DNA of 45,233 nucleotides from Escherichia phage vB_EcoM_SHAK7693. The DNA is taken from sequence record OR594180. One strand, given 5' to 3'. Position numbers and translations under genes: made by a program. How positions within the stretch are numbered: position 1 is the stretch's first letter; each line of letters opens with the position of its first letter. Positions 2,736 through 43,133 of this stretch are shown piece after piece. The notes beneath the pieces were generated by a model. That model ran no database searches and was not told where the DNA came from. It was given only the letters and a program-made list of their open reading frames with translations.

Positions 2736-2768
2736 AAAAAGGCCTCTTTCGAGGCCTTAGTTTTATTT
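2736..2768. terminator. bidirectional rho-independent terminator
   Basis: Stem AAGGCCTC-TTTC-GAGGCCTT flanked by A-run upstream and T-run downstream. Confidence 0.55.
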
Positions 2769-3284
2769 AAATCGCGCGGGCATTAACACCATAAAGGCCG
2801 TGTTTGAAAATTGTATTTTGCATCCTTTGGTTTGGTCCTGGAAATCGAAACGAGCAATTTCATTTTTGTATGCCTTAGAAATCTTGTACGCGTCTGCCAA
2901 ATAGCGCAGAGTGAACCCTATACTGTCGACAACACCCGGTGTGATGTGCGCCACGCGTCTCCAGTCAGGAAAGTTTCCTTCTACAACATCTACCGGAAGT
3001 GTACATATAAGCACACGATTATCGTCATAGAAAGATACACTGCCGTTGTCGTGGTTTACCTCTGCGTAGTTAAATTTAGAAGGCTCTCTCCCTTTGATGT
3101 CTATGAGAGTCCCTTTCTCAACGTTGGTCTTCACATTGTCGCAGAACAATCTATGACCGTCCGTAGACACTATCAATCCTTCAGGGTCTATGTAAAAAGC
3201 GTTCAAATAGTAGCGAACATCATTTTTAGCTCTGCATATTTTTGCCCCTACATACGCAGGGAAAGTAATTACTGTAGTAACCAT
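2763..3284 (-). CDS. DnaN-like protein (beta sliding clamp domain II plus C-terminal half of domain III)
   Basis: Motifs DVRYYLN, STDGHRL, GNFPDWRRV, SIGF..YL.D and C-terminal LMPARF match E. coli DnaN residues ~140-366 from memory; own promoter and terminator. Confidence 0.65.
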   Translation of the reverse strand: MVTTVITFPAYVGAKICRAKNDVRYYLNAFYIDPEGLIVSTDGHRLFCDNVKTNVEKGTLIDIKGREPSKFNYAEVNHDNGSVSFYDDNRVLICTLPVDVVEGNFPDWRRVAHITPGVVDSIGFTLRYLADAYKISKAYKNEIARFDFQDQTKGCKIQFSNTAFMVLMPARFK

Positions 3285-3311
3285 TTTGCGTCTCCTGTTT
3301 AAGTTAACTGA

Positions 3312-3340
3312 ATAGTACCCTATTATATTGGTGTCTGCAA
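3312..3340 (-). promoter_or_regulatory. class-A promoter (TTGCAG-N17-TACTATTCA) for DnaN-like gene
   Basis: Conserved element shared with five other loci; correct spacing to ATG at 3284. Confidence 0.5.
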
Positions 3341-5108: not shown

Positions 5109-5134
5109 TTTTACCTCCTGTTTAATTTAACTGA

Positions 5135-5164
5135 ATAGTACCCTATTATGTTGGTGTCTGTAAA
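5135..5164 (-). promoter_or_regulatory. class-A promoter (TTTACA-N18-TACTATTCA)
   Basis: Near-identical to element at 3312-3340. Confidence 0.5.
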
Positions 5165-5215: not shown

Positions 5216-5258
5216 AACTATTCGAATAGTTGACTTTTCACTGAAAATGTGCTAAGCT
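5216..5258 (+). promoter_or_regulatory. sigma70-like promoter (TTGACT-N17-TAAGCT) overlapped by perfect 16-bp palindrome AACTATTCGAATAGTT
   Basis: Palindrome 5216-5231 is a dyad of the ACTATTC half-site found in class-A/B promoters. Confidence 0.45.
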
Positions 5259-14284: not shown

Positions 14285-14325
14285 GGTGTAGCTCCTGTTT
14301 GAGTTAACATTGTTGGTGTAAGTGA

Positions 14326-14354
14326 ATAGTATCCTATTATGTTGGGGTGCGCAA
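14326..14354 (-). promoter_or_regulatory. class-A promoter (TTGCGC-N17-TACTATTCA) for antisense island
   Basis: Conserved element upstream of island. Confidence 0.5.
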
Positions 14355-27202: not shown

Positions 27203-28061
27203 TTACCGCCCCCATGAATGCCTTTATAAATTCAGCGGCTACTTGCGGGACGATGGCATTGCCATAACCGCGCAATCGTCCCACTCTGGCGGGTATCCCA
27301 TTAGCCAGCGGGAATGCGCCGGGTTCAACTGGCCTGAATTTTCCATCCCGGCATCCGAGCCAGTCAGTATCTGACCAGAAGCCGTGATGCGGATTGGTTG
27401 TGTTATTTTCAGACCCTGCTCCGTCGAGTAGTCCAGCCTGTCGAATGTTCTGTCTTTTCCGTCCTTGCGAATAACTGTCTCTCCGCTCCCTCTGTAATCG
27501 TTCGCTGTTGGGGTCGGCCATGCCAAAAGGTATTGTGCGTGCGTCGCCAGATTGCAATTCGCATTCGGTCTGTTGAAGCGTTTTTCCGCGTAGGCTTGTG
27601 GGTCTTTCGCTCTGCTGTTGTTGTCGTCCGCAACCGCTGGCGTCGGCCAGGTTGTGCGCGCCGAAGAACAGTCTGTCGCGTTTGTGCGGTGCGCCGACGC
27701 TACAAGCTGGGAGTACGGCAAACCCGACGGCGTAGTCTTCTCCTTCCAGGTGAGTTTGTAAATCGCACATCCACGATTTTGCAATTGCTGGCGCAACCTG
27801 CTCCCCAAAGAGGACTGGAGGTCGGCACTCGCTGATAAGGTCGAGGAACACAGGTGCGAGGTGTCTCTGGTCGAACTGTCCGAGTTGCTTTCCCGCCGCG
27901 CTAAACGGTTGGCAAGGCGGGCTTCCCGTCCAGAGAGGCGCATCTTCCGGAACTCCCGCAAGTCTGAGCGCGAGAGGCCAGCCGCCGATACCAGCGAAAA
28001 AAATGACACTGGGTGAACCCGTCAAGGTCTTCTGGCTTAACTTCGGTAATGCTTCTTTCAT
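27195..28061 (-). CDS. DNA (cytosine-5)-methyltransferase-like protein
   Basis: Motifs FAGIGG (I), PPCQPFS (IV), GEQV (VI), KRDRLFF (VIII), GNAIVP (X); motif I to IV spacing unusually short. Confidence 0.6.
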   Translation of the reverse strand: MKEALPKLSQKTLTGSPSVIFFAGIGGWPLALRLAGVPEDAPLWTGSPPCQPFSAAGKQLGQFDQRHLAPVFLDLISECRPPVLFGEQVAPAIAKSWMCDLQTHLEGEDYAVGFAVLPACSVGAPHKRDRLFFGAHNLADASGCGRQQQQSERPTSLRGKTLQQTECELQSGDARTIPFGMADPNSERLQRERRDSYSQGRKRQNIRQAGLLDGAGSENNTTNPHHGFWSDTDWLGCRDGKFRPVEPGAFPLANGIPARVGRLRGYGNAIVPQVAAEFIKAFMGAVNE

Positions 28062-28149
28062 CTACAACTCCAAAAGGTATGTGACCCTGCTTTATTAATT
28101 CACGCAGCCACGCTGCCGCGCTTTTATCCCATTCATTGTAGTAATTCAT
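27901..28149 (-). CDS. ORF overlapping 5' end of methyltransferase in another frame
   Basis: ATGA-coupled to upstream gene; N-terminus carries NEWDK-like motif; A7/T7 tract at 27997-28003 at frame junction. Confidence 0.3.
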   Translation of the reverse strand: MNYYNEWDKSAAAWLRELIKQGHIPFGVVDERSITEVKPEDLDGFTQCHFFRWYRRLASRAQTCGSSGRCASLDGKPALPTV

Positions 28150-28337
28150 TTCGCCACCAGAACTAACTCTTTACGCCCGAACGCCGTAACGTTACCGGTT
28201 ACGTCTTCGATAACCAGTTTACCGTTCGACTCGACGAACACCGTATCAACGGCAACAGGACGACGGGTCTTAACGTTGAAAATCATGTCGCCCGGTACGA
28301 TGTCACGTGCTGGTTTGCGGTCATATTCGTGTTTCAT
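28146..28337 (-). CDS. hypothetical protein (63 aa)
   Basis: RBS AAGGA; first gene after class-B promoter. Confidence 0.45.
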   Translation of the reverse strand: MKHEYDRKPARDIVPGDMIFNVKTRRPVAVDTVFVESNGKLVIEDVTGNVTAFGRKELVLVAK

Positions 28338-28367
28338 TTATCAATTCCTTATATTGTTGGTGTATGA

Positions 28368-28652
28368 CTAACTATAATAGTTCGCTATTAGGTCGTCAAC
28401 CTGTTTAAACGAACCAACGACAAAAACATTCGCACCACGTTTACGCATCCGCTCATGCTCCCGTAACTGGTGCGGGTCAGGCTTCGTGTTCTCGTCTTTC
28501 TTCACCTCGACGAACCAGATGACGCCGCCGGGGAGAATTATCAGCAGGTCAGGAGCGCCCACTCTATTTTCGTACGACAATTTGCGTACAAGGCCCCCCA
28601 GGGCCTCGAATCGGTCTTTTGCGTATTTCTGAATCTTGCCTTCCGGGGTCAT
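28368..28652 (-). CDS. VRR-NUC domain nuclease
   Basis: GAPDLLIILPGG...FVEVK PD-(D/E)XK-like core; ATGA-coupled start. Confidence 0.65.
   Translation of the reverse strand: MTPEGKIQKYAKDRFEALGGLVRKLSYENRVGAPDLLIILPGGVIWFVEVKKDENTKPDPHQLREHERMRKRGANVFVVGSFKQVDDLIANYYS
28371..28399 (-). promoter_or_regulatory. class-B promoter (TTGACG-N17-TATAGT)
   Basis: Near-consensus sigma70 hexamers; spacer contains GCGAACTAT element shared with 32100 and 34976. Confidence 0.45.
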
Positions 28653-28801
28653 GACCGCAGAACCCAAGTTATAAACGCCCCGCCGAGAACGGCAACGCCA
28701 ACAAACTTAAAGAACAGGCCATAACAGAACATCGCGGCTATCCCCGCACCGAGTAACAGTGCGAGCATGGTTACTATCGTCCAAAATACAAACATTGTCA
28801 T
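28649..28801 (-). CDS. small membrane protein (50 aa)
   Basis: Hand-translated; hydrophobic; RBS GGAGG; ATGA-coupled. Confidence 0.35.
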   Translation of the reverse strand: MTMFVFWTIVTMLALLLGAGIAAMFCYGLFFKFVGVAVLGGAFITWVLRS

Positions 28802-28887
28802 AATACGCACCCCTCCCGTTTTGTATGCTCAATGCCACAGCGCGGACAGATTCGGCAGTCTTCTTCGTAGAACCAGTAAATTTTCAT
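28798..28887 (-). CDS. micro-ORF (28 aa) with CxxCxxC
   Basis: Hand-translated; ATGA overlaps at both ends. Confidence 0.25.
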   Translation of the reverse strand: MKIYWFYEEDCRICPRCGIEHTKREGCVL

Positions 28888-29015
28888 TCCAGCACCCACA
28901 GATAAATTGCGACTAACATACCCAATACGGCGACCATCATGCCGTATTGACCCTCGTGGCAGTAGACACCGGCGGTGAATCCCGCCAGTACTGCGATAAT
29001 CAGTTTACTTAGCAT
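28884..29015 (-). CDS. small membrane protein (43 aa)
   Basis: Hand-translated; hydrophobic; starts inside polymerase 3' end. Confidence 0.3.
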   Translation of the reverse strand: MLSKLIIAVLAGFTAGVYCHEGQYGMMVAVLGMLVAIYLWVLE

Positions 29016-31206
29016 AGCGTTTTAACTCCTGCCCTTCCGCTACAAGAGGGAACCCCTCGGCCCACTCAGGCAGAGAACACATTAATTTTTCCAGTTCGGC
29101 CACCGTGTACTCAGGGGTATCTGGGGTTTCACATACCAGTTCATCGTGTACCGAAAGCACGATAGGATACCCGCCACGCTCAACGTTAATCATCGCATAT
29201 GCCAGTAAATCACGGCACAGCGCCTGGACAATGTTTTCACATGCTTTACCGCCGTGGGTGTATAGAGTTGTCCATTGGCGGGTTAACTGGTTTTCGCCCT
29301 GATACTTGATTCGGACATTCGTGTTTACCCGTCCATCTTCGTCTGTTTCCTTTGTCACACTAACGCCGATTCCCGGATACGAGAGGATACGGCCTGACGG
29401 CAACTCCATACACAACCACCAGCCAGGAACCTTCCTGCCCGACGAATCAAATTCTACGGTACGCCATATGCGGATAGCCCTTTCACCATTCCGGCGCAAG
29501 TGTGCCCCGGCCCAAAATTCACGACCAGGATTACGAACAGCGGCTAAAATTCCGTCTTTAAGGTCGCGCCAGAACGCTACTGTTTCCGGGTGTGACTCGC
29601 GCCACATACGCTTGATTGCATCACATGTGCGCCACACTTTCTTGTCCAGAATATATGATGGTCGGTCATCCTTTTCACCAGGATGCGGTGGTCGCTTGGC
29701 TTCCTGAATACGCGCCCACTCATACCCACGTGCGGTAGCAGCCCAGATGTGGTCGGGGAAAGTCCCGTCCATTGTTTTTGCCATCTCAATAAGGTCAAGA
29801 CCTAAGTTTTTAGCAAACGTAACGAACGCTCCGACGCCGCCCTCGTAGCCGAGACCCAGTTCGCATGCTTTGCCTATCTGTCTGATTTCCTTAAAGTTTT
29901 TCTTAATATCGTCGGGGTCCATGCCAAACATCTTACCTGCGGTTACACAGTAAATATCCAGTCCGGCACGGAACGTATCGAGCGCGGTTTCTTCTCCTGC
30001 TAACCACGCTAACCCACGACCTTCGACGTTAGAGTAATCAGCTACGACAAACTTGTGCCCGGCTTCCGGTATGATGCAGCTACGGACCGTCGATGCCGTC
30101 AGCTTGGCTACGTCAAATCGGCGGTGAGCACGACCCTTAAGTAACGCTGAAATGCCTTTATCCAGTTCATCATCGTGATAGTAACCGCGCGCCAGGTTCT
30201 GCGGCTGAAAGCCTTTACCCGCCCATCGCAGAGTGCGTTTTGCCCCGCCGTACTGCAAGCAACCACGACGGCGGTCGTCAGACGAGCGGCCCAACAGAAG
30301 CGGGTTATATTTCGTGGACGCTGTTGACGCGGCACCGAGGCGCATTTCGATAATCGTCCGGGCGTCGTCCGGTAAATCATCATCTGCCAACAGGTCGTTA
30401 AGCGTAGACTTCTGCGCGTTGTGAATACGGTGCGCAGGCGCAAGTTCACGCAGAATCGGCAGAAAGTCCTTACCCGTAAGCGAGCCTCCGTATTTGCGCT
30501 GGGCTTCTTCCTGTAACTGCGCTTTATGTTTCTCTACGGCATCAATAGCGGCTTCCGCCAGTGCGACGTCAACCTTAAACCCGCGGTCATTAATTAACTG
30601 GTCCAGTTCCAGTACGCGGTCCTCGAACTCGGAGTTACCCCAACGCGGCAGCTTATGGAAGACTTCACGCATCGCAGTGATGTCGCTCACGGCGTACTTG
30701 ATGAACAGCTCCCACTCATCAGGGTGTGTTTCGGCGGTGTAGCGTCTGATTTTGTAGTTCTTCGGCGTCGGCTTAGAGAAACGCTGAATCAGCGCCTTGC
30801 CGCGTTTATCTTTCGCATTGTCAGCGGACACGCCCAGCACTTCGCACAACGCATCAAGTGACCCCGGCAGCGCGTGACGAAACGCCCAAATCATTGTATC
30901 AATGGTGTTGCTTACGGGAATATCAAAACCCCAGCAGTTCTTCATGATGAGTCTGTCGAACATTGAGCCGTTGTGCCACACCATCTTAATACGACTGTTC
31001 GGCTTAACTAGGCGGCGTAACGCGCGATACAAATCTCCCGGCATGTCGCTGCCATCGGTGCAATCCCACACCTGTACAGGCTCGTCATCAAAAGCATAGG
31101 TACAGATAAGCACTTCGGTTGACGGGTGTTCGGCGTAAGCGTAGGACCCGACTTTCTTTAAATCGGCTTCGGAGAATGTTTCAAAGTCCAGGTATAAGTA
31201 GCTCAT
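29005..31206 (-). CDS. DNA polymerase I (family A) with 3'-5' exonuclease domain
   Basis: N-terminal LYLDFETFS exo motif; DYSNVEGR and RQIGKACELGLGYEGG palm motifs. Confidence 0.85.
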   Translation of the reverse strand: MSYLYLDFETFSEADLKKVGSYAYAEHPSTEVLICTYAFDDEPVQVWDCTDGSDMPGDLYRALRRLVKPNSRIKMVWHNGSMFDRLIMKNCWGFDIPVSNTIDTMIWAFRHALPGSLDALCEVLGVSADNAKDKRGKALIQRFSKPTPKNYKIRRYTAETHPDEWELFIKYAVSDITAMREVFHKLPRWGNSEFEDRVLELDQLINDRGFKVDVALAEAAIDAVEKHKAQLQEEAQRKYGGSLTGKDFLPILRELAPAHRIHNAQKSTLNDLLADDDLPDDARTIIEMRLGAASTASTKYNPLLLGRSSDDRRRGCLQYGGAKRTLRWAGKGFQPQNLARGYYHDDELDKGISALLKGRAHRRFDVAKLTASTVRSCIIPEAGHKFVVADYSNVEGRGLAWLAGEETALDTFRAGLDIYCVTAGKMFGMDPDDIKKNFKEIRQIGKACELGLGYEGGVGAFVTFAKNLGLDLIEMAKTMDGTFPDHIWAATARGYEWARIQEAKRPPHPGEKDDRPSYILDKKVWRTCDAIKRMWRESHPETVAFWRDLKDGILAAVRNPGREFWAGAHLRRNGERAIRIWRTVEFDSSGRKVPGWWLCMELPSGRILSYPGIGVSVTKETDEDGRVNTNVRIKYQGENQLTRQWTTLYTHGGKACENIVQALCRDLLAYAMINVERGGYPIVLSVHDELVCETPDTPEYTVAELEKLMCSLPEWAEGFPLVAEGQELKRYAK

Positions 31207-31358
31207 TTCTTTTTCCTTAAATCCAGTGCCTTCGTTTCACTTAATCTTATTTTCATACAATCACGGCAAATCCACACATGCCTGTACCCGGCCCGGTACT
31301 CATCTGCGTACCACGGAAGCGGTTTCATATAGCGATAAACGTGCTTACAGAAAAACAT
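31203..31358 (-). CDS. Cys-rich small protein (51 aa)
   Basis: Hand-translated; RBS AAGGG; stop overlaps polymerase ATG. Confidence 0.35.
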   Translation of the reverse strand: MFFCKHVYRYMKPLPWYADEYRAGYRHVWICRDCMKIRLSETKALDLRKKK

Positions 31359-31371
31359 TATTTTGACCCTT

Positions 31372-31396
31372 AGTAAAAAGGCCCAATGAAGGGCCT
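31372..31396 (-). terminator. rho-independent terminator/attenuator between SSB-like and polymerase genes
   Basis: GGCCC-loop-GGGCC followed by T-run on minus strand. Confidence 0.4.
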
Positions 31397-31416
31397 TAGT
31401 TAAATTGATTCAGATA

Positions 31417-32046
31417 TTAACGGCGGCGACGTTCGCGGCGCGGTGCTTCATCTTCTTCGTCGTCTTCCAGGTCGTCAGTGCTCGCTACTACACTGGAGCC
31501 TCCGAAGCGTTTACCTTCACCCATATACTTGATGCCGAGGATGGTAGCGCACAGGTTTTTCCAATCTTTGTGCCACCATAATTCTACAGATACGTTTGCG
31601 ACACATCCGCTATATACCTGCTCGCCTTCGATTTCTTTCCCGTCGATGTTGAAATCAGGCTCGGTTTGTTTTTCACCTTTAGCCGATGTCATAATCACCG
31701 GTTGACGGTTGTTAGTGGCCCGGAAATACAGACCTTCTTCAAAATCCTCAATAGGATTGTCTCGCATTGCCAGGTCACGTACACAGCACTTGTCCGCGTG
31801 GTGGTCTACACCGTAGTTGGCCTTCATCCATTTCTCGGCAGCGGCGGCACCGATTGCATCTGTTACAACTTCCAGCGCGGTGTCATAAAGCGCGTCGATT
31901 TGAGGGTGGTCAGGCTGCATAAGAACCGTAACCTGGTATTTACCCTTAATCAGTTTACCGGTTTTCTTGTCCTCAGAGTCGGCAGCACGTTCGAATACGT
32001 TAACCCATGCAGTGTTTACTTTACGCAGATTCAGTTTAATACCCAT
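31417..32046 (-). CDS. putative ssDNA-binding protein (DUF2815-like)
   Basis: 209 aa with acidic C-terminal stretch DDLEDDEEDE; neighbours DUF2800-like nuclease and polymerase. Confidence 0.45.
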   Translation of the reverse strand: MGIKLNLRKVNTAWVNVFERAADSEDKKTGKLIKGKYQVTVLMQPDHPQIDALYDTALEVVTDAIGAAAAEKWMKANYGVDHHADKCCVRDLAMRDNPIEDFEEGLYFRATNNRQPVIMTSAKGEKQTEPDFNIDGKEIEGEQVYSGCVANVSVELWWHKDWKNLCATILGIKYMGEGKRFGGSSVVASTDDLEDDEEDEAPRRERRRR

Positions 32047-32099
32047 CGTGATTTCTCGCTTTTCAGTTTACTCCGGGAACTGCCCGGCCAGTGATTAGA

Positions 32100-32128
32100 A
32101 CTATAATAGCTAACTATTCAGGTGTCAA
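32100..32128 (-). promoter_or_regulatory. class-B promoter (TTGACA-N17-TATAGT)
   Basis: Consensus -35; spacer TGAATAGTTAGCTAT. Confidence 0.45.
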
Positions 32129-32132
32129 CACT

Positions 32133-32624
32133 TTATTTGCCGTGATTTTCGTGGAAACCGTACTTAACCTCTGCGGCCTTTCGCGCTGCTATTGCGCCGT
32201 CGATAGTTTCAAAACGTCCGAGATGAATTAGTTTCTTCTCAACTTTTATCTCAGCTCGCCATTTGCCGCGGGTTTTATCGAAACTAACACCCGTCACCCC
32301 TGACGTGTTGTTGCGGGCTAAAGATAAATTACGGCTGTTCTCTTTTCGGGTTGTTTTCCTTAAATTAGAAAGAAGATTATTTTCCCGATTATGGTCAATA
32401 TGGTCTATCTCCTCTCCAGGTTGAAGTTTATTTTCAGGGTTCATCATATCCCATATAATTCTATGCGCCAGAAATGTCCTTCCACGTAAACGTACGCACA
32501 CATAGCCCCAATTACGGACAGACGCGACCTCGCTCCCAGCGGGTGCACGATTGCTGTTAGTTACGCGCCAATACAACTTACCGGTATTGGTATCATACCT
32601 AAAATAATCTTCCCATTTAATCAT
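32133..32624 (-). CDS. HNH homing endonuclease with AP2 domain
   Basis: DHIDHNRENN...ENSRN HNH motif; GVSFDKTRGKWRAEI...LGRFETIDGA AP2 domain. Confidence 0.8.
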   Translation of the reverse strand: MIKWEDYFRYDTNTGKLYWRVTNSNRAPAGSEVASVRNWGYVCVRLRGRTFLAHRIIWDMMNPENKLQPGEEIDHIDHNRENNLLSNLRKTTRKENSRNLSLARNNTSGVTGVSFDKTRGKWRAEIKVEKKLIHLGRFETIDGAIAARKAAEVKYGFHENHGK

Positions 32625-33862
32625 TCCAAATCCTCCTCTGTTACCCCCTTCCACTCAGGTCGTTTGTCGTCCGCCGTTGTAACGCATGGGGCTCCGGGCT
32701 TACGCGTGATGAAGTTTTTTAGTTCTTCTTCTGGGATAACTTTCAAGGCTGCTGTAGGGGTCATGATTGACTTAGTCATAACTTTATCACCAAATTTAGC
32801 AATAACGGCATCGGGGTCCGCCCAGGAGCGATTGCCATCCCGCCCTTCAACCAGTTTGTACCCCTGAACTTTCTTACCGGAATGCAATGCGGCGGACATC
32901 GCTTTTTCAACCTTGTCAATGTGCTGACGCAACAACGGCAACTTCTCATACTCAGCCACGAGTTGCTCAGGTGTCAGTTCCGGCAAAAAGTCGTCCTCCA
33001 GTTCTTCTGCCAGTACCGAATTAACAGTCTTCGTTCTGGCAGCGCACTGTTCAGAGAACCTGCACCACTGGCAACCATCAACCGACGGCTTAAAGTCTGA
33101 CGCTTTCAGGTTCTTCTTACCGCGGAAGTACGCATCGAGCGCTAACAGTGCGCGTTTCTGTGCGAACTTAGCGAACAGTTCCAGACCTTGAACAGAGATA
33201 TCCCACTCCGAAGCACCGCCAGCATACGGCTGGAAGATGACCAGACGAACAGTTGTTATGTTATAACGTCTCTTGAGTCGGCGATAAACACCGAGAGCGT
33301 AAAGCATAAGCTGCTTGTTTTCTTTCGCTTCGACACGATGCCGTCCGGTTTTCAGGTCGCCAATAATGAGCATGTGCTCGTCGGTGTTTGCCAGGTCCTG
33401 AACGGCAACGAGGTCGGCGGTCCCGAACGTCTCAACGCCTTCATATCCCGGATGCAGCACCTCGGTAAGATTTACGCGCATTTCCAGCTTGGCGTAAGTC
33501 GCTACATCGATAATAGCTTTGCAGTAGTCGGTGTACTTACGCACCTGCTCAATCATGTCCGCCGTAATAAGTACCGCACCTTTCACAGGGCTGATTAACG
33601 CCTTAATCTGGCCTTTGCCTTCATCCAGCACGTAAGCGCCAACTTCACGCTCTAACGGCAATGCAGTGCCACGGATATAGGCGTTTAGATGGACCTCTGC
33701 TATGGTGTGGCACGCGGTCCCTGTAACTGCGGCTTTACCCGACGTGTTAGGAATATCTTTTTCACAGGCTAGCGATGCAGCGCAGCTTAGCCACTTTTTA
33801 GCGCCCGACGGCGACAGTAAGGCGTGTACATCGTTATTGCCGCCGCGTTCTTTTAGGATCAT
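32621..33862 (-). CDS. PD-(D/E)XK nuclease, DUF2800/Cas4-like
   Basis: N-terminal LSPSGAKKWLSC hallmark; C-terminal Cys cluster CQWCRFSEQC; ATGA-coupled. Confidence 0.5.
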   Translation of the reverse strand: MILKERGGNNDVHALLSPSGAKKWLSCAASLACEKDIPNTSGKAAVTGTACHTIAEVHLNAYIRGTALPLEREVGAYVLDEGKGQIKALISPVKGAVLITADMIEQVRKYTDYCKAIIDVATYAKLEMRVNLTEVLHPGYEGVETFGTADLVAVQDLANTDEHMLIIGDLKTGRHRVEAKENKQLMLYALGVYRRLKRRYNITTVRLVIFQPYAGGASEWDISVQGLELFAKFAQKRALLALDAYFRGKKNLKASDFKPSVDGCQWCRFSEQCAARTKTVNSVLAEELEDDFLPELTPEQLVAEYEKLPLLRQHIDKVEKAMSAALHSGKKVQGYKLVEGRDGNRSWADPDAVIAKFGDKVMTKSIMTPTAALKVIPEEELKNFITRKPGAPCVTTADDKRPEWKGVTEEDLE

Positions 33863-34131
33863 ACCCTGTTCTCCCACTGGTCAATTAAATGTCGTGTCTT
33901 ATGGTCGCAGTGCATAGCCCACCCATACATCGACTCGAAGACATAAAAGTCAGGTTTGGCGAAAGTCGTGCGCTTAATCTGCGACACGTGGCGGCCTATA
34001 TCTTTAGGCCGGGGTGCTTTGCCTAAGTACGCCATCTCTTCCATCTGGTGCGCACCGGACGGCGCACGCAACAGCCATAGCGACTCTGTGTTGTCTCGCC
34101 TGTCTACGGCGCGGTAGAGTTGGTAAATCAT
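33859..34131 (-). CDS. hypothetical protein (90 aa)
   Basis: ORF in replication operon. Confidence 0.45.
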   Translation of the reverse strand: MIYQLYRAVDRRDNTESLWLLRAPSGAHQMEEMAYLGKAPRPKDIGRHVSQIKRTTFAKPDFYVFESMYGWAMHCDHKTRHLIDQWENRV

Positions 34132-34430
34132 TTATCCACCTCATGCATTCTCAAGAAGACAATCATAGCGGCGCGTAGAGGGTTTTCGTGCGTACTTTTG
34201 GTGAACGAGGCGGAGTGATACGCTCTATATGTGAACGTATGCCGGTTAACCGTAACGCATTCAATTGATATGTGATTATCAATTATTATAGGCCATGCGT
34301 CCTCCACCCGATTACAATAATCGACTCCTCCGGAAGCTAATTCCATCTGATGCCCCCGCGAAACATTTCCGTATAGCGCGCGGCTGACACGTGCATTGAT
34401 TTCTATGTCTGTTAAATTTCCGTAGTTCAT
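34128..34430 (-). CDS. hypothetical protein (100 aa)
   Basis: ORF in replication operon. Confidence 0.45.
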   Translation of the reverse strand: MNYGNLTDIEINARVSRALYGNVSRGHQMELASGGVDYCNRVEDAWPIIIDNHISIECVTVNRHTFTYRAYHSASFTKSTHENPLRAAMIVFLRMHEVDK

Positions 34431-34473
34431 AATTCCGACCCTCAGTTAAAGCGGCCCGAAGGCCGCGGGATAG

Positions 34474-34944
34474 TTATTCTTCTTCGAAATACTTGTTCTT
34501 GATTGCCGTCAGGCGTTCCAGATACTCCGCCAGGTCTTCGTCTTTAATCGCGGCAATCTTCATCTTCTTACCGGTGAACTCTTCCAGCAGTTCATCAGAA
34601 TCATCACACGCGGCATCGCTCGGACCTTCGTTAATTGCATCGTCGATAGCCTGAATCTGGTCGCGCAGAGACTGGTAATCGACTTCTTCTTTATCCTCTT
34701 CCGGTTCTGGCGTCGGTTCCTCTACTTTAGCTTTACGCGGCTTGCGTTTCGGCTTCTCTTCTTCTACCGGTTTAGTGTCAACTACGTCTTCACCTTCTAC
34801 CGGGATTTCTTTTGTTGCATCTTTTGCAACAGTAGGCTCGATTGTTGCGGTTTCAGCAACGACAACTTGTTTCGCGCTGTTAGCAGCAATCAGTTCGTGG
34901 GCAACTACGAAACGTTCTAGTAATACTAAGAATTTCTCTAACAT
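34474..34944 (-). CDS. acidic hypothetical protein (156 aa)
   Basis: Glu/Asp/Lys-rich; first gene after class-B promoter at 34976. Confidence 0.45.
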   Translation of the reverse strand: MLEKFLVLLERFVVAHELIAANSAKQVVVAETATIEPTVAKDATKEIPVEGEDVVDTKPVEEEKPKRKPRKAKVEEPTPEPEEDKEEVDYQSLRDQIQAIDDAINEGPSDAACDDSDELLEEFTGKKMKIAAIKDEDLAEYLERLTAIKNKYFEEE

Positions 34945-34975
34945 TTGTTTCTCTCCTCTCGTTTGGTATTGGCTA

Positions 34976-35004
34976 ACTATAATAGCGAACTATTCACATG
35001 TCAA
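34976..35004 (-). promoter_or_regulatory. class-B promoter (TTGACA-N17-TATAGT)
   Basis: Consensus hexamers; divergent from HTH regulator gene. Confidence 0.45.
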
Positions 35005-35009
35005 TGGGC

Positions 35010-35045
35010 TTTTCTAAAATAATTAATATGGTACTATTCACATAT
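35010..35045 (+). promoter_or_regulatory. class-A-like element (TACTATTCA) upstream of HTH regulator gene
   Basis: -10-like TACTAT with TTCA; weak -35. Confidence 0.35.
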
Positions 35046-35068
35046 CAACTGACTAAGGAGTAATTGAC

Positions 35069-35284
35069 ATGCAACCATCTGAACTAGGCATCCGTGTAGA
35101 ACAACGCCGTAAAGAACTCGGCATCTCCCAACGTCGTCTGGCTGTTCTGACCGGCGTTTCCCAGGGCGCGATTAACCAGCTTGCACTCGGTGTAACCCAG
35201 GACGTCCGCCCGGCAACGCTGTTTAAACTGGCGGAAGTGCTGGAAGTAGACGCCAAGTGGCTGGCGTTAGGTGAAGGGGCTTAA
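35069..35284 (+). CDS. XRE-family HTH transcriptional regulator
   Basis: ISQRRLAVLTGVSQGAINQL helix-turn-helix; RBS AAGGAG. Confidence 0.7.
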   Translation: MQPSELGIRVEQRRKELGISQRRLAVLTGVSQGAINQLALGVTQDVRPATLFKLAEVLEVDAKWLALGEGA

Positions 35285-35300
35285 GCCCCTTTCTTTTTAT
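35268..35300 (+). terminator. rho-independent terminator
   Basis: GGGGCTTAAGCCCC palindrome then TTTCTTTTTATT. Confidence 0.5.
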
Positions 35301-35611
35301 TGCAACTTATCGAGTTCTTCCAAATTCTTAATCGTGTGTTGCACATTCAGGTACTGAATCCAGGCAAAAAGCCATACGCTCACCGGAAAACTAACCGCGG
35401 CAGCCGTTCTGAAAACAATGTGGGCGGTACACGCTACAATTTCCTTTAACGTCATATCCAGAACATGGCGCAATTCTGCAACTTCCTCTAACGCTAGCTT
35501 GCAAACAGGCCACCATTGGTGGGCTACACAAGAAACACATGTCAGGTATGTCGGGCGGTATCCGGCCCTAACTGCTTTAAACGGGTTATTTATAAAATCG
35601 TAAATATTCAT
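35297..35611 (-). CDS. hypothetical protein (104 aa)
   Basis: ATGA-coupled to primase/helicase gene. Confidence 0.45.
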   Translation of the reverse strand: MNIYDFINNPFKAVRAGYRPTYLTCVSCVAHQWWPVCKLALEEVAELRHVLDMTLKEIVACTAHIVFRTAAAVSFPVSVWLFAWIQYLNVQHTIKNLEELDKLQ

Positions 35612-37875
35612 TCCAAATCCTCCTCTGTCACTGTCAGCATTTCATTCGGTTCGTATATTGTCTTCGGAATCTTGTTATCCGTTATTCGGGTGTTCAACCT
35701 GTAACGGCCAGGTATTATCTGATTGTTTTCGTCGGTCCCTGGCACAAGATACCCCGCCTCAACCATTTTCTTAATCTTCCCGCGTTCTATAGCTTCTTTG
35801 GAGTTAAACGCCTTCGCGTTGGGGTCAGACTGTGCGAGCTTATTTGCCGCGGCTACTGTGATACCCTCGTTGCCGTTGTAGGTTCCTTCTGCCAGTTCAA
35901 ACGCCGCGAGTATCGTGGACTCGGAACTGTTGACGGCGTTCTCTACGGTTTTACGTACGTTTTGTTTACCTTCGTTAGTTAACCTTTCTTCCCGCTCTTT
36001 CTCCTCGTCAGTCTTGAACGGCTCGAAACCCCACGGCATCAGCACAAGCGCCTTGTGCGGCTCAGGAAGGTCGAGGTTTATGATTGTGCCGTATTCCTCT
36101 GTGCTACCGAGGAACTCAACCGCACGGTACTCTTTCGGCGGTGGTGCTTCACGGAACTGTACTGACTCAAGCACCATTCCAACCGTTTTCTGTTGGGGGC
36201 CGTGCTTAAATTTAGAGTGGTATACGTTTATCTGACGGTCGGTAGCGCGCTCAATTGTCAGTTCTACGTCAACACCGGCATACAGCGCCCCACTGCCACG
36301 GGCTTTCTTTCCACCCTTCGGCGTATGGTGGACAGCACCCACCGCGGCTTTAGTCGCGTCGCGTACTTCTTTCAGGATGGCGATAACTTTACCCATGCCG
36401 ATTGCCGTTGATGAACTGTTCTCGTCGAACTTATCAATCGTCAGGGCCAGCGTCTGGTTAAGGGTGTCGAACGCGACCATTCCGATAGGTTCACCCCCAG
36501 CAGTTTCGCGCATTAACTTAATCAGGTTTTTCAGTTTTCCGACTTCGCCCATGTCGATAACATGTACATAATCTTTACCTTCCGCGCCGTATTTAGCGGC
36601 TAGAGCATCAATACGTGTTCGCGTAGCTGCACCACCTTCACCATCAATATAGAAATGGTGGCAACGCTGGGTATCAGCCCCGGCAAACCGGTATCCGGCG
36701 GCGCTCAGGTACATCATCCCCAGCGTATAGAACGATTTATACGTACCGGACTCACCGACAATATCCCATATGCAATCCGACGGCATATAACCTTCAACGA
36801 CGAAATCAGCCTTTACCGGTTCCGGTAGCTCGTCCTCCTCTGAGCCATCATCGTCTTCCAGGTCGTCCAGGCTGCATGAAACAGATTCACGCGCACCCCA
36901 TCCGATAGCCTCGGCGACTTCACTGAACGGCAGCCCGGTCGCATCACACGCATACTTCCACACCTCTTTCGGCGACATGCCTTCGGTTGCCGTAATGTCA
37001 GTGTCGTGGATCATGGTTACGTTCGGCGCTTCGTAGCCCTCGCGCGGGAAGCACAGCAGGAAGTCGTCCGGCCGCGGCGTAGGGTCGCTGTAATTTTCTG
37101 CATGTTCCGGCGTAGCTGGCATCTTAAGGCCGCGGAGCGTCATAACACCGCCGTACTCAAACGCCAGCGCCTCAAACGCATCAGTAAACGCGGTACGCAG
37201 TTCTTCCGGTATCTGGTAATCCGATGCGCTGCTAACGTCAACGGCGGGGATACCTTCCAGTAACTCGTCCGGGTCAATCAGGTCGTTGCGGCGCGACCAG
37301 ATAACCGTAGAGCCAACCGGCGGCAGGTACATCGGTTGTGACAGAGTAAACCCGCTGCGGTCAGCGCCCATGCCTTTGAAGAAGTGCTCAAGCAAGCCAT
37401 GACGAACACGGATGATGTCACCACCCTCAACAGGACGGGCCATCGGCATGACGACGCGAAAGCGTGGTGACTCATCGGTATGGGATGCCGTGGTGTAGAG
37501 GCACATAGCCAGGCGGCTGCGCTTAACCAGGCGCACAGCTTCCTGATACTCTTCCGGTGTTGCGCTGTCGAAGTCCAGATAGGCGAGCGACGATTTGCTT
37601 ACAGACGCGTCGCAGCGATAGAAGAAGCCTTTACGCGCTTGCTTAAAGTCACCGGTTTCCGGGTCTTTTACGGCGCTGTGCGTAGAGTCGCACGCGGCAG
37701 TGATATAGCCAGGCGCGGTCTTCGGGTTAATTCCGTCACGAACAACATCGAGTGGCTGGATTAACTCTTTCAGGTCGTCCAGTGTTGCCGTGTGGGTGGT
37801 TCTGACGTTTATATCCTTTTTCTCTGCCCGCGCGTTGCGACGAGACCACGAGTAGGATAAAATTACATCGGACAT
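35608..37875 (-). CDS. putative primase/helicase (RecA-like ATPase)
   Basis: Walker A GESGTYKS in central domain; 755 aa; large N-terminal domain. Confidence 0.55.
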   Translation of the reverse strand: MSDVILSYSWSRRNARAEKKDINVRTTHTATLDDLKELIQPLDVVRDGINPKTAPGYITAACDSTHSAVKDPETGDFKQARKGFFYRCDASVSKSSLAYLDFDSATPEEYQEAVRLVKRSRLAMCLYTTASHTDESPRFRVVMPMARPVEGGDIIRVRHGLLEHFFKGMGADRSGFTLSQPMYLPPVGSTVIWSRRNDLIDPDELLEGIPAVDVSSASDYQIPEELRTAFTDAFEALAFEYGGVMTLRGLKMPATPEHAENYSDPTPRPDDFLLCFPREGYEAPNVTMIHDTDITATEGMSPKEVWKYACDATGLPFSEVAEAIGWGARESVSCSLDDLEDDDGSEEDELPEPVKADFVVEGYMPSDCIWDIVGESGTYKSFYTLGMMYLSAAGYRFAGADTQRCHHFYIDGEGGAATRTRIDALAAKYGAEGKDYVHVIDMGEVGKLKNLIKLMRETAGGEPIGMVAFDTLNQTLALTIDKFDENSSSTAIGMGKVIAILKEVRDATKAAVGAVHHTPKGGKKARGSGALYAGVDVELTIERATDRQINVYHSKFKHGPQQKTVGMVLESVQFREAPPPKEYRAVEFLGSTEEYGTIINLDLPEPHKALVLMPWGFEPFKTDEEKEREERLTNEGKQNVRKTVENAVNSSESTILAAFELAEGTYNGNEGITVAAANKLAQSDPNAKAFNSKEAIERGKIKKMVEAGYLVPGTDENNQIIPGRYRLNTRITDNKIPKTIYEPNEMLTVTEEDLE

Positions 37876-37932
37876 GTTGTATTTCCTTCAGCAAGTAATT
37901 TGGCCTCGGCGCTCTAACGTCGGGGCTTTCTT

Positions 37933-38166
37933 TTATTCCAGGTCTTCTAAAGTGGCGGCCATTCCGCGAACTTCAGCAACAGCGCTATATTTCCCACCAA
38001 CATTTTTCACGACACCGGATTTAACCAGTACCCTCAACGACCCTTCAATAATGGCTGAACTATAGTACTTAAAATAACTACGGCGCAAGTCCATAACGCT
38101 GCACGACCCTTTTTTGCGGGTTAACGAAACGACCGCCGTAAATACGCGTGACTGGAACTCGGTCAT
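37933..38166 (-). CDS. hypothetical protein (77 aa)
   Basis: ORF between regulator and primase/helicase. Confidence 0.45.
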   Translation of the reverse strand: MTEFQSRVFTAVVSLTRKKGSCSVMDLRRSYFKYYSSAIIEGSLRVLVKSGVVKNVGGKYSAVAEVRGMAATLEDLE

Positions 38167-38333
38167 TTAACGTTCTCCTTAATCCACGCTTCCACTTTCT
38201 CTGGGTCAAACGTACCCGGCTGCCGGCGGCCCATAATGCGGATACAACAATCCGGGAACTTCCCACTCTTTAACCAGTTATTAAGCGTGCGGCGAGTAAC
38301 CCCAATACGCTCAGCTACCTCATTCTGTGTCAT
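38163..38333 (-). CDS. AlpA-like HTH DNA-binding protein
   Basis: MTQNEVAERIGVTRRTLNNW helix-turn-helix; RBS GAGGG. Confidence 0.55.
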   Translation of the reverse strand: MTQNEVAERIGVTRRTLNNWLKSGKFPDCCIRIMGRRQPGTFDPEKVEAWIKENVK

Positions 38334-38365: not shown

Positions 38366-38394
38366 AGTATACATTGCGAATAATGGGAAATCAA
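38366..38394 (-). promoter_or_regulatory. sigma70-like promoter (TTGATT-N17-TATACT) for minus-strand early operon
   Basis: Hexamers and spacing read from sequence. Confidence 0.4.
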
Positions 38395-38764
38395 ACATAA
38401 TCGCACCTATTGACATTATGGAAATCTTCGTTTAAGGTGCTTCTATATCTTAGTTACTTTTATTCCTGTTCACCTTGTAAGAATGTTTAACCCGTGCGTC
38501 AAGCAAAGGGTTAAACACAGGCTTACTGAACATTAGAATTATAGTAACTTTCCTTCCTAAGTATCTCCAGTTGCCTTGGGCAAGCTCTATTCTCATCGGC
38601 AGCATATATCTTAAGTATCTGATTTTCTTAAAGTGCCGTAGATTCGCAACCGTAAAAATGTAACGATTATTGGGCAGGCCTTAAGCCTGCCCTTTAGTTA
38701 CCAAGTAATAAGAATAAAGGCACAACCTTCCCCGAAGAATCACAACGGCAACGTAACTATTCTC

Positions 38765-38793
38765 TTGCACACCCCAATATAATAGGATACTAT
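38765..38793 (+). promoter_or_regulatory. class-A promoter (TTGCAC-N17-TACTATTCA)
   Basis: Conserved element; extra AACTATTC half-site about 20 bp upstream. Confidence 0.5.
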
Positions 38794-38827
38794 TCACTTA
38801 TCGGAACGAGACAGAGGAGTTGGGGTT

Positions 38828-39807: not shown

Positions 39808-39836
39808 TTGCACACTGGGATAGAATAGGCTACTAT
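39808..39836 (+). promoter_or_regulatory. class-A promoter (TTGCAC-N17-TACTATTCA)
   Basis: Conserved element. Confidence 0.5.
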
Positions 39837-39969
39837 TCATTTACACGAACGAGGGGGGAGACGGAATATGATTCCTGGGCATTAGGCGAACTGGTAGATG
39901 CTTACGAAATAATGGGTAGCACTTCGGTGCGCGACGGTGACACTAAAGCGATAAAAATGGGGGTTGAGG

Positions 39970-43052: not shown

Positions 43053-43072
43053 CTATTTTCTGTAATGACTAG

Positions 43073-43101
43073 TTGACTATTATCCTGGACCCTATTATAT
43101 T
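43073..43101 (+). promoter_or_regulatory. sigma70-like promoter (TTGACT-N17-TATATT)
   Basis: Near-consensus hexamers with 17-bp spacer. Confidence 0.5.
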
Positions 43102-43133
43102 TACTTCATCGACAACGAGAACGGAGTAGAGAA

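Follow-up and report, generated by a model that had tools for sequence, protein, structure and literature searches.

A Cro-type regulator gene in a Kagunavirus genome and a 14-bp palindrome shared by its control region and other phage promoters

The operators of 434 Cro and 434 repressor are 14-bp palindromes whose outer bases are contacted and whose centre is not. Genome-wide operators are also known in phages, as in the scattered Op sites of P1 C1, the 'stoperators' of L5 gp71 and the conserved inverted repeats of the phiC31 repressor, all of them larger proteins which maintain lysogeny in temperate phages. Aca genes share an operon with the anti-defence gene they control and usually lie directly downstream of it, while C proteins and XRE antitoxins combine an XRE fold of about 70–100 aa with autoregulation via palindromes. 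In the Jerseyvirus SGP-C, the same gene as the one analysed here has been described as the Cro-like ORF49, paired with an HTH_17 gene in a 'lysogeny module' and proposed as half of a lysis/lysogeny switch (PMC8790156). The idea of an immunity-like switch in an otherwise lytic genome, raised for our locus by a first-pass annotation, is not new, having appeared in print for SGP-C (PMC8790156).

Our locus encodes a 71-aa regulator in a Kagunavirus (Guernseyvirinae) genome, the whole stretch of 45,233 nucleotides analysed being referred to hereafter as the window. The regulator belongs to the same fold family as 434 Cro and the N-terminal domain of 434 repressor, and it has the length of 434 Cro. 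Like OR1–OR3 of phage 434, its candidate 14-bp operator has conserved outer bases and a free centre and overlaps divergent promoters, and the presence of two sites of unequal quality could provide a built-in order of occupancy. Nevertheless, identity to 434 Cro is only about 35–40% and the operator sequence is unrelated, neither a partner CI repressor nor a lysogeny module accompanies the gene in the Kagunavirus phage, the regulator has a stand-alone transcript with its own terminator instead of being the first gene of an early right operon, and the candidate operator lies over at least eight promoter regions, not in two operator clusters. As for P1 C1, L5 gp71 and the phiC31 repressor, one short operator is repeated in many promoters and a single protein could shut most transcription, although here the protein is a Cro-sized minimal domain from a phage family regarded as virulent. 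With Aca repressors it shares the small HTH protein, an inverted repeat inside a very strong early promoter and predicted self-regulation, but its gene is divergent and monocistronic and the candidate operator is found at many loci. The likeness to C proteins and XRE antitoxins extends to weak sequence matches with HipB, HigA and MqsA models; unlike in those systems, no restriction, methylase or toxin gene is adjacent, and the neighbours are convergent or divergent.

The regulator gene, its neighbours and its terminator

The 71-aa protein matches the Pfam family HTH_3 (PF01381) with an E value of 2.3e-12 (47.2 bits against a curated cut-off of 23, residues 11–65 covered), as well as HTH_19 and HTH_31, and it matches PHROG families of transcriptional repressors and regulators with E values of about 1e-10. 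Among proteins of solved structure, those nearest to it are 434 Cro (E=7.9e-6), 434 repressor (E=1.5e-5) and P22 C2 (E=6e-3). An HTH_3 score above the cut-off, together with similarity to structurally characterised members, places the protein among the XRE/Cro-C1-type HTH regulators, as the first-pass annotation had proposed. It is a bare DNA-binding domain to which neither an oligomerisation nor a cleavage domain is attached. The gene is present in more than 500 phage records under the labels Cro, repressor or XRE, with identities of 94–100% in about 116 Kagunavirus records and 41–49% in several hundred Jerseyvirus and Cornellvirus-like records, the Cornellvirus protein standing at 43%; a protein search outside the subfamily returned only Kagunavirus variants, 77–99% identical and with an identical recognition helix. 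The gene is real and conserved but not new, and its public labels ('transcriptional regulator Cro', 'repressor', 'DicA') are homology calls. In the literature searched, no functional study of the regulator or of Guernseyvirinae promoters was found, only annotation and one coarse RNA-seq study, and the searchable papers on this regulator report no binding sites, genome-wide palindrome or functional test. The Kagunavirus RNA-seq data place the probable equivalent of the regulator, assigned only by its 'specific DNA binding' annotation and its place beside the primase gene, in a broad 'middle' class which is too coarse to help (PMC12645636). The gene and its surroundings comprise the following features.

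35069..35284, plus strand: XRE/Cro-type regulator gene, an ORF of 71 aa whose stop codon lies within the terminator loop
35055..35060, plus strand: RBS AAGGAG, 8 nt before the regulator ATG, unchanged in 36 of 37 relatives
35273..35300, plus strand: intrinsic terminator of the regulator, 8-bp G+C stem, 4-nt loop and T run
34474..34944, minus strand: 156-aa acidic protein, phrog_3127, function unknown, first gene of the leftward operon here
35297-35611, minus strand: accessory 104-aa ORF, convergent and upstream, missing from many relatives
35608-37875, minus strand: primase-helicase, convergent, upstream of the regulator

The regulator is indeed the sole plus-strand gene within a 13-kb minus-strand block, as noticed at first pass: the other plus-strand ORFs between 25.4 and 38.6 kb all overlap long minus-strand genes, and in the annotated relative Schulenburg every CDS between record positions 25784 and 38144 lies on the minus strand except the regulator gene. 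Transcripts of the 104-aa ORF and of the primase-helicase gene would consequently run antisense across it. The terminator claimed for the regulator was likewise borne out, since a hairpin at 35273–35292 with a stem of −13 kcal/mol is followed by a T run, CTTTTTATT; no U tract follows this hairpin in the minus-strand direction, which makes the terminator unidirectional. Its stem is conserved and its loop variable in 37 relatives, and the Jerseyvirus and Cornellvirus terminators have another stem sequence with the same structure. A scan of the window against Rfam gave no known RNA family.

In the three Guernseyvirinae genera examined the regulator is monocistronic, with its own promoter, RBS and terminator, and the cassette of regulator and terminator facing the same operon is kept whatever the orientation of the primase gene; in Cornellvirus the primase gene follows the regulator on one and the same strand, but the regulator retains a terminator of its own. 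The gene of the divergent 156-aa protein belongs to the conserved core (77% in Jerseyvirus, 38% in Cornellvirus), and neither this protein nor the convergent 104-aa neighbour gave family matches as toxin, restriction enzyme or methylase. About a third of the relatives carry an unrelated small gene (37–75 aa, at least five kinds) in first position after the leftward promoter.

The control region and the recurrent palindrome

The non-coding gap between the regulator and the divergent 156-aa gene spans 124 bp (34945–35068) and contains the following elements.

34976..35004, minus strand: leftward class B sigma-70 promoter, TTGACA (35004..34999), 17 nt, TATAGT (34981..34976)
35029..35037, plus strand: putative regulator promoter, class A extended −10 (TGg followed by TACTAT), no −35
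34993..35020, plus strand: alternative rightward promoter, TTCACA (34993-34998), 16 nt, TAAAAT (35015-35020), 10/12, the best rightward sigma-70 match
34980-35004 and 35024-35048, plus strand: 25-nt direct repeat in two copies of 84% identity, 44 bp apart, each with one palindrome
34981..34994, unstranded: O1, perfect palindrome AATAG-CGAA-CTATT, within the spacer of the leftward promoter
35025..35038, unstranded: O2, AATAT-GGTA-CTATT, over the −10 of the regulator itself, differing from the genome-wide consensus at one position

Between 34955 and 35068, 16% of 114 compared positions were variable in 37 distinct relatives, against a background of 62% at third codon positions of the adjacent gene, so the signals in this region are more than chance. 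The leftward class B promoter described at first pass, TTGACA-17-TATAGT, matches the consensus at 11/12 positions; both hexamers are essentially invariant, with no position varying in two or more of 37 relatives, and the same architecture recurs at 32105 and 28376. On the plus strand, the class A extended −10 is most likely the promoter of the regulator, to judge from its core and its distance to the ATG, which are the same as at 38781, 39824, 3311, 5134 and 14325. Only one of its nine positions (35029..35037) is variable among 37 relatives, where the TG is kept and the following base is G, A or C. In the alternative rightward promoter TAAAAT is conserved, while the −35 candidate varies at two of six positions and relatives show indels. 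Hence, the picture of divergent promoters, class B to the left and class-A-like to the right, stands insofar as two promoter families are repeated in the genome. The overlap of −35 regions that went with it has to be abandoned: TTCACA adjoins the leftward −35 back to back without overlapping it, and the class-A-like element (35024–35048), with its −10 TACTAT at 35032–35037 preceded by TGn, has no recognisable −35.

The two copies of the 14-bp palindrome AATAG-N4-CTATT in the control region, O1 and O2, contain the sole recurring inverted repeat of these 124 bp, AATA-N6-TATT, which occurs exactly twice. Their arms are invariant at 20/20 positions in 37 relatives, and within O1 three of the four central positions vary against none of the ten in the arms; invariant arms around a free centre are, as read from this conservation, the footprint of a candidate dimeric HTH site. 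A search of the control region for an alternative operator of the XRE protein found none. Two candidates were considered and rejected because they vary in close relatives: a 9-nt inverted repeat, CATGTCAAT / ATTGACATG (34997–35005 and 35063–35071), which changes in both arms and has indels in one, and a near-palindrome, TTCACATGTCAA, where the two −35 regions meet, a place more variable than any other in the control region.

The palindrome, overlooked at first pass, is the most enriched of the genome: the window holds eight perfect copies, against 0.98 expected even with one mismatch allowed. All copies are intergenic, while about 92% of the DNA is coding, and they appear in at least eight intergenic promoter regions, the following sites (all unstranded) adding to those of the control region.

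32105..32118: in the class B promoter of the ssDNA-binding protein / DNA polymerase operon; Jerseyvirus orthologous site L039:30682
28376..28389: in the class B promoter of the VRR-NUC/helicase operon; Jerseyvirus orthologue L039:27369
38781..38794: in a rightward class A promoter (TTGCAC-17-TACTAT); Jerseyvirus orthologue L039:36450
39824..39837: in a second rightward class A promoter; Jerseyvirus orthologue L039:37545
14325..14338: in the class A promoter of a minus-strand Imm-like / metallophosphatase cassette within the tail genes; Jerseyvirus L039:15200
5134..5147: in the class A promoter of a small minus-strand gene within the head genes
3311..3324: in the class A promoter of a minus-strand 173-aa gene (2763-3284)

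In class B promoters the palindrome lies wholly in the spacer, and in class A promoters it lies over the −10. Since its placement relative to the hexamers differs between the two classes, it is not a by-product of RNA polymerase recognition, and both placements would be repressive. In Jerseyvirus, five perfect copies were found at orthologous promoters, against 0.06 expected. The palindrome thereby shifts the likely scope of regulation from local to genome-wide.

Proposed turn-down of promoters and rival explanations

Our tentative preference, held at slightly less than even confidence, is for a Cro-type repressor which lowers transcription of the leftward operon and of its own gene, and probably that from most promoters of the phage. 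The small 434-Cro-like protein would be made from its own weak promoter (extended −10, no −35) as a single-gene mRNA ending at its own terminator, and its dimer would bind the 14-bp AATAG-N4-CTATT. Binding at O1, in the spacer of the strong leftward promoter predicted to drive the exonuclease and downstream replication genes, would block RNA polymerase, while O2, with its one mismatch and its position over the regulator's −10, would allow a weaker and later self-repression. As at least seven more promoters have the palindrome in their core (the other two that serve replication operons, two rightward early and three of minus-strand cassettes inside structural genes), the regulator would most likely act as a genome-wide turn-down regulator of early/middle transcription and not as a local switch, for which lambda and 434 Cro acting on PL and PR provide the model. 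Its features are those of the Cro-like class, a small single-domain protein at a divergent control region, facing the opposite operon, with dyad-symmetric candidate operators overlapping the cores of the promoters it faces. We have filed it as Cro-like and not as half of a CI/Cro switch because no CI-type partner was found, that is, no gene combining an HTH with a peptidase or oligomerisation domain in the window or in the annotated relatives.

We infer that the regulator is the palindrome binder, that its binding represses, and when it would act. The geometry of AATAG-N4-CTATT is that of a 434-type operator, which counts in favour of the regulator as the binder. Cornellvirus keeps the regulator without the HTH_17 and winged-helix pair discussed below, yet contains a different palindrome in the same 16-bp frame, TATTA-N6-TAATA, in three copies against 0.02 expected, at least one of them in a promoter region that is recognisably orthologous, a point that also speaks for the regulator. 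Other findings count against it. The palindrome is identical between Kagunavirus and Jerseyvirus, whereas the regulator is only 49% identical, four of its eight recognition-helix residues are changed and it is among the most diverged genes common to both genera. The promoter of the Jerseyvirus regulator itself has only one palindrome arm left. AATAG-N4-CTATT is absent from Cornellvirus, where the regulator is kept, and the palindromes of that genus are few and have the −10 hexamer TAATAT as right arm. Besides, repression of nearly every promoter, including those apparently feeding late genes, needs further explanation.

The main rival explanation, which we consider unlikely although it deserves serious attention, assigns the palindrome to one or both of two other proteins and leaves the XRE protein as a purely local regulator, or one of unassigned role, with an operator of its own yet to be recognised. 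These proteins are encoded by overlapping genes.

38166-38333, minus strand: HTH_17 protein, 56 aa, Pfam HTH_17 E=2e-7, at the head of the leftward early operon
37933-38166, minus strand: 77-aa winged-helix protein, overlapping the HTH_17 gene, AF2 model with pLDDT 86 and winged-helix topology

The pair was found only in Kagunavirus and Jerseyvirus, the two sampled genera that also have the palindrome; neither protein is present in the two Cornellvirus-like genomes tested. Between these genera, where the palindrome is identical, identity reaches 87.5% for the HTH_17 protein and 69% for the 77-aa protein, against 49% for the XRE protein. The two genes open the leftward early operon, and the region upstream of them, up to the class A promoter at 38781, contains no palindrome, as would be expected if they are made first and then control the remaining promoters. 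For the 77-aa protein, the confident predicted model has fold matches to the MotA N-terminal domain and LexA, which are the best, and to MarR. In the RNA-seq data the HTH-domain gene K1B4_008, probably the HTH_17 gene, is among the four earliest genes (PMC12645636).

This phyletic pattern, however, amounts to one evolutionary split, Kagunavirus and Jerseyvirus against Cornellvirus, and Cornellvirus, without both proteins, still has a related palindrome at some of the same promoters, while ten other small Cornellvirus proteins gave no HTH match. If the palindrome is taken from the XRE protein, no other operator is left for it in the control region. The typical targets of excisionase/Cox-like HTH_17 proteins (Xis, TorI, Cox, Apl) are direct repeats, bound by monomers or filaments, and not 14-bp palindromes, which counts against the HTH_17 protein as the binder. 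An AlpA/Q-type antitermination by this protein, with the palindrome as a loading site within promoters, was also considered and appears unlikely: the phage protein has 56 aa, whereas Pseudomonas aeruginosa AlpA is much longer (residues up to 142 are discussed), needs an N-terminal segment which enters the RNA exit channel, and binds a single 6-bp element (PMC9371919).

A further explanation, to which we give little credence, is that the regulator works as an immunity or carrier-state repressor, silencing the genome in some infected cells and giving rise to an unstable, plasmid-like immune pseudolysogen with no integrase. Turbid bull's-eye plaques, 'lysogens' with superinfection immunity and a possibly episomal genome have been described for the Jerseyvirus SGP-C, whose authors point to the regulator gene and the HTH_17 gene (PMC8790156). 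The presence of the candidate operator in most promoters would also fit such a state, and a complete Kagunavirus genome has been deposited as a circular 44-kb 'plasmid' of an E. coli blood isolate (CP088689.1), even if this lone record could reflect phage carry-over in culture. On the other hand, the protein is a bare 71-aa DNA-binding domain with neither oligomerisation nor cleavage domain, no integrase or partition genes were seen, the regulator region appears as a prophage in 0 of 5,426 complete E. coli genomes, and most papers call Kagunavirus-type phages strictly lytic. The strongest form of this proposal strikes us as improbable: a minimal pseudolysogeny of one protein and one operator, in which the regulator silences the genome through the palindrome in nearly every promoter, and phages of both genera that are called 'strictly lytic' and are widely put forward for therapy and food biocontrol persist in an unstable carrier state, plasmid-like and immune, with no integrase. 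Serratia phage eta, reported with 'unstable lysogens', was set aside as a comparison, having only the structural module in common and being uninformative.

It is equally improbable that the palindrome has no dedicated phage binder, being a host-factor site or a composite of back-to-back −10-like elements, with the XRE protein acting elsewhere, for instance on host or prophage genes. Its arms each resemble a −10 hexamer (TATAAT, TACTAT and TATAGT overlap them) and in Cornellvirus the right arm of the palindrome is the −10 itself. Sigma-70 polymerase, though, reads no bases in the promoter spacer, and the class B palindrome lies precisely there, perfectly conserved both inside genera and across them, better even than the −35 hexamers, while its centre varies freely; moreover, we know of no E. 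coli regulator with an AATAG-N4-CTATT consensus.

Finally, the Aca-like switch suggested at first pass, in which the regulator would damp the strong promoter of anti-defence genes placed directly after it, is very hard to credit in spite of the HTH protein beside a very strong promoter whose core contains an inverted repeat, and of a first gene which varies, as accessory early genes typically do, in about one relative in three: it fails on architecture because the regulator, divergent and monocistronic in three genera with both neighbours on the other strand, has no co-transcribed partner and shares no operon with the small genes, none of which has a known anti-defence function, and, besides, the first gene after the leftward promoter encodes a conserved core protein in most genomes, the same candidate operator recurs in replication and other promoters, and the family matches of the regulator are to generic HTH models only (HTH_3/19/31).

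Bearing on phage use and occurrence of the palindrome elsewhere

The element is of an ordinary kind, and the palindrome is a useful new lead. Few small siphoviruses of E. coli and Salmonella are isolated as often as Kagunavirus and Jerseyvirus phages, which are under development for therapy, biocontrol and as synthetic-biology chassis, with a transcription programme essentially unstudied. If the regulator binds the palindrome, one gene and one 14-bp site would explain the turn-down of early/middle promoters, and the operator-bearing promoters would constitute a ready-made set of regulated parts for engineering. Such binding would also bear on the safety claims made for therapy and biocontrol phages, since some members may not be cleanly lytic, to judge from reports of turbid plaques, of immune survivors and of an episomal copy. 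If the regulator does not bind, the palindrome would still mark a regulon, and the factor would be found among two or three candidate proteins.

A de novo search for a common intergenic motif in Cornellvirus found nothing comparable to the Kagunavirus palindrome. Scanning viral contigs with the extended form TATAATAG-N4-CTATTCA gave multi-copy matches only on contigs of about 40–45 kb, as in Kagunavirus, or on fragments, the matches elsewhere being single and presumably due to chance. Several of the multi-copy contigs were already among the relatives retrieved.

The regulator gene and its control region

Region 34400-35700 matched 444 phage records, with Kagunavirus phages NRG857CP3, EC3-1, Schulenburg and Snoke as best matches (93-94% identity) and mostly Salmonella Jerseyvirus among the rest. 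The window is therefore assigned to Kagunavirus (subfamily Guernseyvirinae), of which it represents a complete or near-complete genome. Kagunavirus members are siphoviruses of 41-45 kb, usually described as lytic. The features of the regulator locus are as follows.

Features of the regulator locus
34474-34944, minus strand: divergent gene for a 156-aa protein, separated from the regulator gene by a 124-bp gap
35004-34976, minus strand: leftward promoter TTGACA-17-TATAGT, near-consensus (11/12)
34980-35004 and 35024-35048: 25-nt direct repeat, with a 14-bp palindrome at the core of each copy
34981-34994: O1, AATAG-CGAA-CTATT, occupying the spacer of the leftward promoter
35025-35038: O2, AATAT-GGTA-CTATT, over TACTAT (35032-35037) with TGn preceding
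35069-35284, plus strand: regulator gene (71 aa), with the ribosome-binding site AAGGAG 8 nt before the ATG
35273-35292, plus strand: G+C hairpin of an intrinsic terminator, followed by a T run and good on this strand only

The first-pass annotation had described a 71-aa HTH protein with its own terminator, encoded by the sole plus-strand gene of a minus-strand block, and this observation was correct. The product matches Pfam HTH_3 (E=2.3e-12), as well as HTH_19 and HTH_31; its stop codon lies within the terminator loop, and its best solved relatives are 434 Cro, also of 71 aa, and the DNA-binding domain of the 434 repressor. In Schulenburg all other CDS of the record interval 25784-38144 are on the minus strand, and the orthologue carries its own annotated ribosome-binding site and terminator; that of Jerseyvirus Shelanagig is likewise a lone plus-strand gene. 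A translated search yielded 538 phage records with the protein: those at 90-100% identity, about 116, are Kagunavirus, several hundred at 41-49% belong to Jerseyvirus, Cornellvirus and unclassified Guernseyvirinae, and the tail comprises more distant XRE proteins from unrelated phages. The gene is thus already known and widely annotated (among other labels, 'transcriptional regulator Cro', 'transcriptional repressor', 'repressor DicA', 'XRE family'), and the cassette is a real, conserved, Cro-type element of an ordinary kind. We found no published functional test of the regulator.

Divergent promoters with overlapping -35 regions had also been proposed. The leftward promoter stands, but the overlap does not, since the best rightward match (TTCACA-16-TAAAAT) only abuts the leftward -35. 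The layout from O2 to the ATG matches five other promoters of the window (class A, TTGCAC-17-TACTAT, with the palindrome over the -10), minus the -35. As the TG before TACTAT is retained in relatives while the next base is G, A or C, the element fits an extended -10 promoter. In a comparison of 37 distinct relatives, variation affects 16% of intergenic positions versus 62% of third codon positions. None of the 20 palindrome-arm positions varies, three of the four positions of the O1 centre do, and the -35 and -10 hexamers of the leftward promoter show essentially no variation.

A 35-nt stretch inside the gene (35232-35266) is 100% identical to a type I-E CRISPR array adjoining cas2e and iap in E. 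coli strain 2017.09.02CC (NZ_AP025214.2), probably made up of a 32-nt spacer and matching bases from the edge of the repeat. By our reading, the PAM beside it in this phage would be ACG rather than the canonical AAG.

A promoter-embedded palindrome and its candidate binders

The palindrome, AATAG-N4-CTATT, is the sole recurring inverted repeat of the control region and the most enriched palindrome of the window, with eight perfect and four one-mismatch copies versus 0.98 expected at up to one mismatch. About 92% of the window is coding, yet every perfect copy is intergenic, as are four of five one-mismatch copies that were examined (O2 among them), and each of these intergenic copies lies 25-60 nt 5' of a start codon.

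Palindrome-bearing promoters
28376, 32105 and 34981, leftward: class B promoters of replication genes, TTGAC(A/G)-N4-palindrome-ATAGT
38781 and 39824, rightward: class A promoters
3311, 5134 and 14325: class A promoters of minus-strand cassettes inside structural genes

The palindrome-to-hexamer offset differs by 6 bp between the classes, and class B copies sit where RNA polymerase reads no bases, so the palindrome is not a by-product of promoter recognition. Jerseyvirus has five perfect palindromes versus 0.06 expected, located at orthologous promoters whose palindrome centres, flanks and even -35 hexamers have diverged. What these comparisons add to the existing annotation is a promoter-embedded palindrome that likely delimits a regulon.

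One-mismatch palindromes at 43068-43081 and 5225-5238 overlap the -35 (TTGACT) of two more rightward promoter-like sites. One of these sites lies directly past the lysis-cassette terminator, before the small-gene/terminase/structural block, and its Jerseyvirus orthologue has the mismatch in the opposite arm. Several palindrome-promoter leaders of Kagunavirus and Jerseyvirus conserve an AACGAG(A/G) box just 5' of the Shine-Dalgarno sequence (38805-38811, 39849-39855, 43118-43124 and, on the minus strand, 34959-34965; also in the Jerseyvirus locus L039), which could be an extended ribosome-binding site or a processing site.

We tentatively predict that the XRE regulator binds the palindrome, a reading held at slightly below an even chance on the balance of the points for and against it. 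Operators of the 434 type have a 14-bp geometry matching the palindrome; the regulator has a 434-type fold, and two copies lie at its own gene. Cornellvirus keeps the regulator and has a related palindrome in the same frame, TATTA-N6-TAATA (three copies versus 0.02 expected, at least one in a recognisably orthologous promoter region); ten other small Cornellvirus proteins tested had no recognisable HTH. Against this prediction, Kagunavirus and Jerseyvirus share an identical palindrome, yet their XRE proteins have just 49% identity and differ at half of the recognition-helix residues; in addition, the regulator's own Jerseyvirus promoter retains only one palindrome arm.

The same balance leaves it rather unlikely that another phage factor is the binder, namely an excisionase/Cox-like HTH_17 protein and/or an overlapping 77-aa protein, whose genes (37933-38333, minus strand) head the leftward early operon. 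These proteins are 87.5% and 69% identical between Kagunavirus and Jerseyvirus, respectively, and occur only in these two palindrome-sharing genera. The AlphaFold model of the 77-aa protein is a confident winged helix (pLDDT 86), its best fold matches being the T4 MotA N-terminal domain, LexA and MarR, and the non-coding stretch from these genes to the class A promoter at 38781 has no palindrome. However, Cornellvirus possesses neither gene and still has the related palindrome. The resulting short list of three candidate binders, also new here, could be separated by simple experiments.

About 460 bp (38367-38827), separating this early operon from the first class A promoter that points right, hold only a 51-aa ORF, no convincing gene, and a strong rightward hairpin terminator (38672-38692). 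No position could be assigned with confidence to the immediate-early leftward promoter.

If the regulator is the binder, a regulatory scheme might follow; beyond the palindrome sites themselves, which exist and are under selection, we infer each of its steps. Expressed from its weak -35-less promoter, the regulator would build up over infection, first filling the perfect operators in the strong promoters of both classes, which would lower expression of the early and replication operons, and next its own imperfect operator. Because the hairpin lacks a minus-strand U tract, transcripts of the primase operon probably run antisense through the regulator gene; they would add convergent-transcription interference, limited to Kagunavirus and Jerseyvirus.

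History of the cassette and its possible roles

The regulator gene of Cornellvirus FSL SP-031 and of vB_SenTO17 lies opposite the same leftward operon, with a homologue of the 156-aa gene first, and the primase-helicase gene is downstream on the regulator's strand. The terminator 3' of the regulator is kept despite this same-strand arrangement, with a stem that differs in sequence, but not in structure, among the three genera. Regulator, terminator and divergence from the leftward operon thus form the conserved unit. In these loci (L040, 10724-13749; L041, 19840-22826) the terminator parting both genes is bordered by runs of A and T. The primase module of Kagunavirus and Jerseyvirus shares only 31% identity with its Cornellvirus counterpart, which, together with the same-strand primase, indicates that the antisense layout of the window arose by module inversion or replacement. 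The antisense position relative to the primase operon is peculiar to Kagunavirus and Jerseyvirus, and this comparative evidence, the third new element here, indicates a cassette older than its antisense orientation. A 104-aa accessory gene (35297-35611, minus strand; phrog_2638) lies between the regulator terminator and the primase-helicase gene. Shelanagig and many Kagunavirus relatives lack it, and their primase gene stops at the terminator.

An immunity or carrier-state role for the regulator is improbable. For Jerseyvirus SGP-C, turbid plaques and immune 'lysogens' were attributed to a proposed 'lysogeny module' made up of the regulator, called Cro-like (ORF49), and the HTH_17 gene 2.4 kb away (PMC8790156). 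Such a role would also draw on a genome-wide operator, as whole-genome silencing would require, and on CP088689.1, a 44,086-bp circular sequence (pC16EC0033-2) deposited as a non-mobilizable 'plasmid' of an E. coli human blood isolate from Korea. This is a complete Kagunavirus genome with equal gene order, 91% identical to the window over the replication region, regulator included; it could represent an episome in the carrier state, or else carry-over of phage in culture. However, a lone 71-aa domain makes an unlikely agent of stable maintenance, and the region is absent from the chromosomes of all 5,426 complete E. coli genomes. The Aca-like switch suggested by the first-pass annotation lacks its defining architecture, as the regulator is co-transcribed with nothing and its candidate operator spreads beyond one locus.

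Directly after the leftward promoter (34945-34960 in the window, with equivalents in relatives) lies a variable slot, a lead worth noting as the kind that houses accessory early genes. About one-third of relatives carry there a different small gene (37-75 aa) before the conserved 156-aa gene, of at least five unrelated kinds (37, 49, 53, 58 or 75 aa), the 75-aa protein being cysteine-rich and by appearance zinc-binding.
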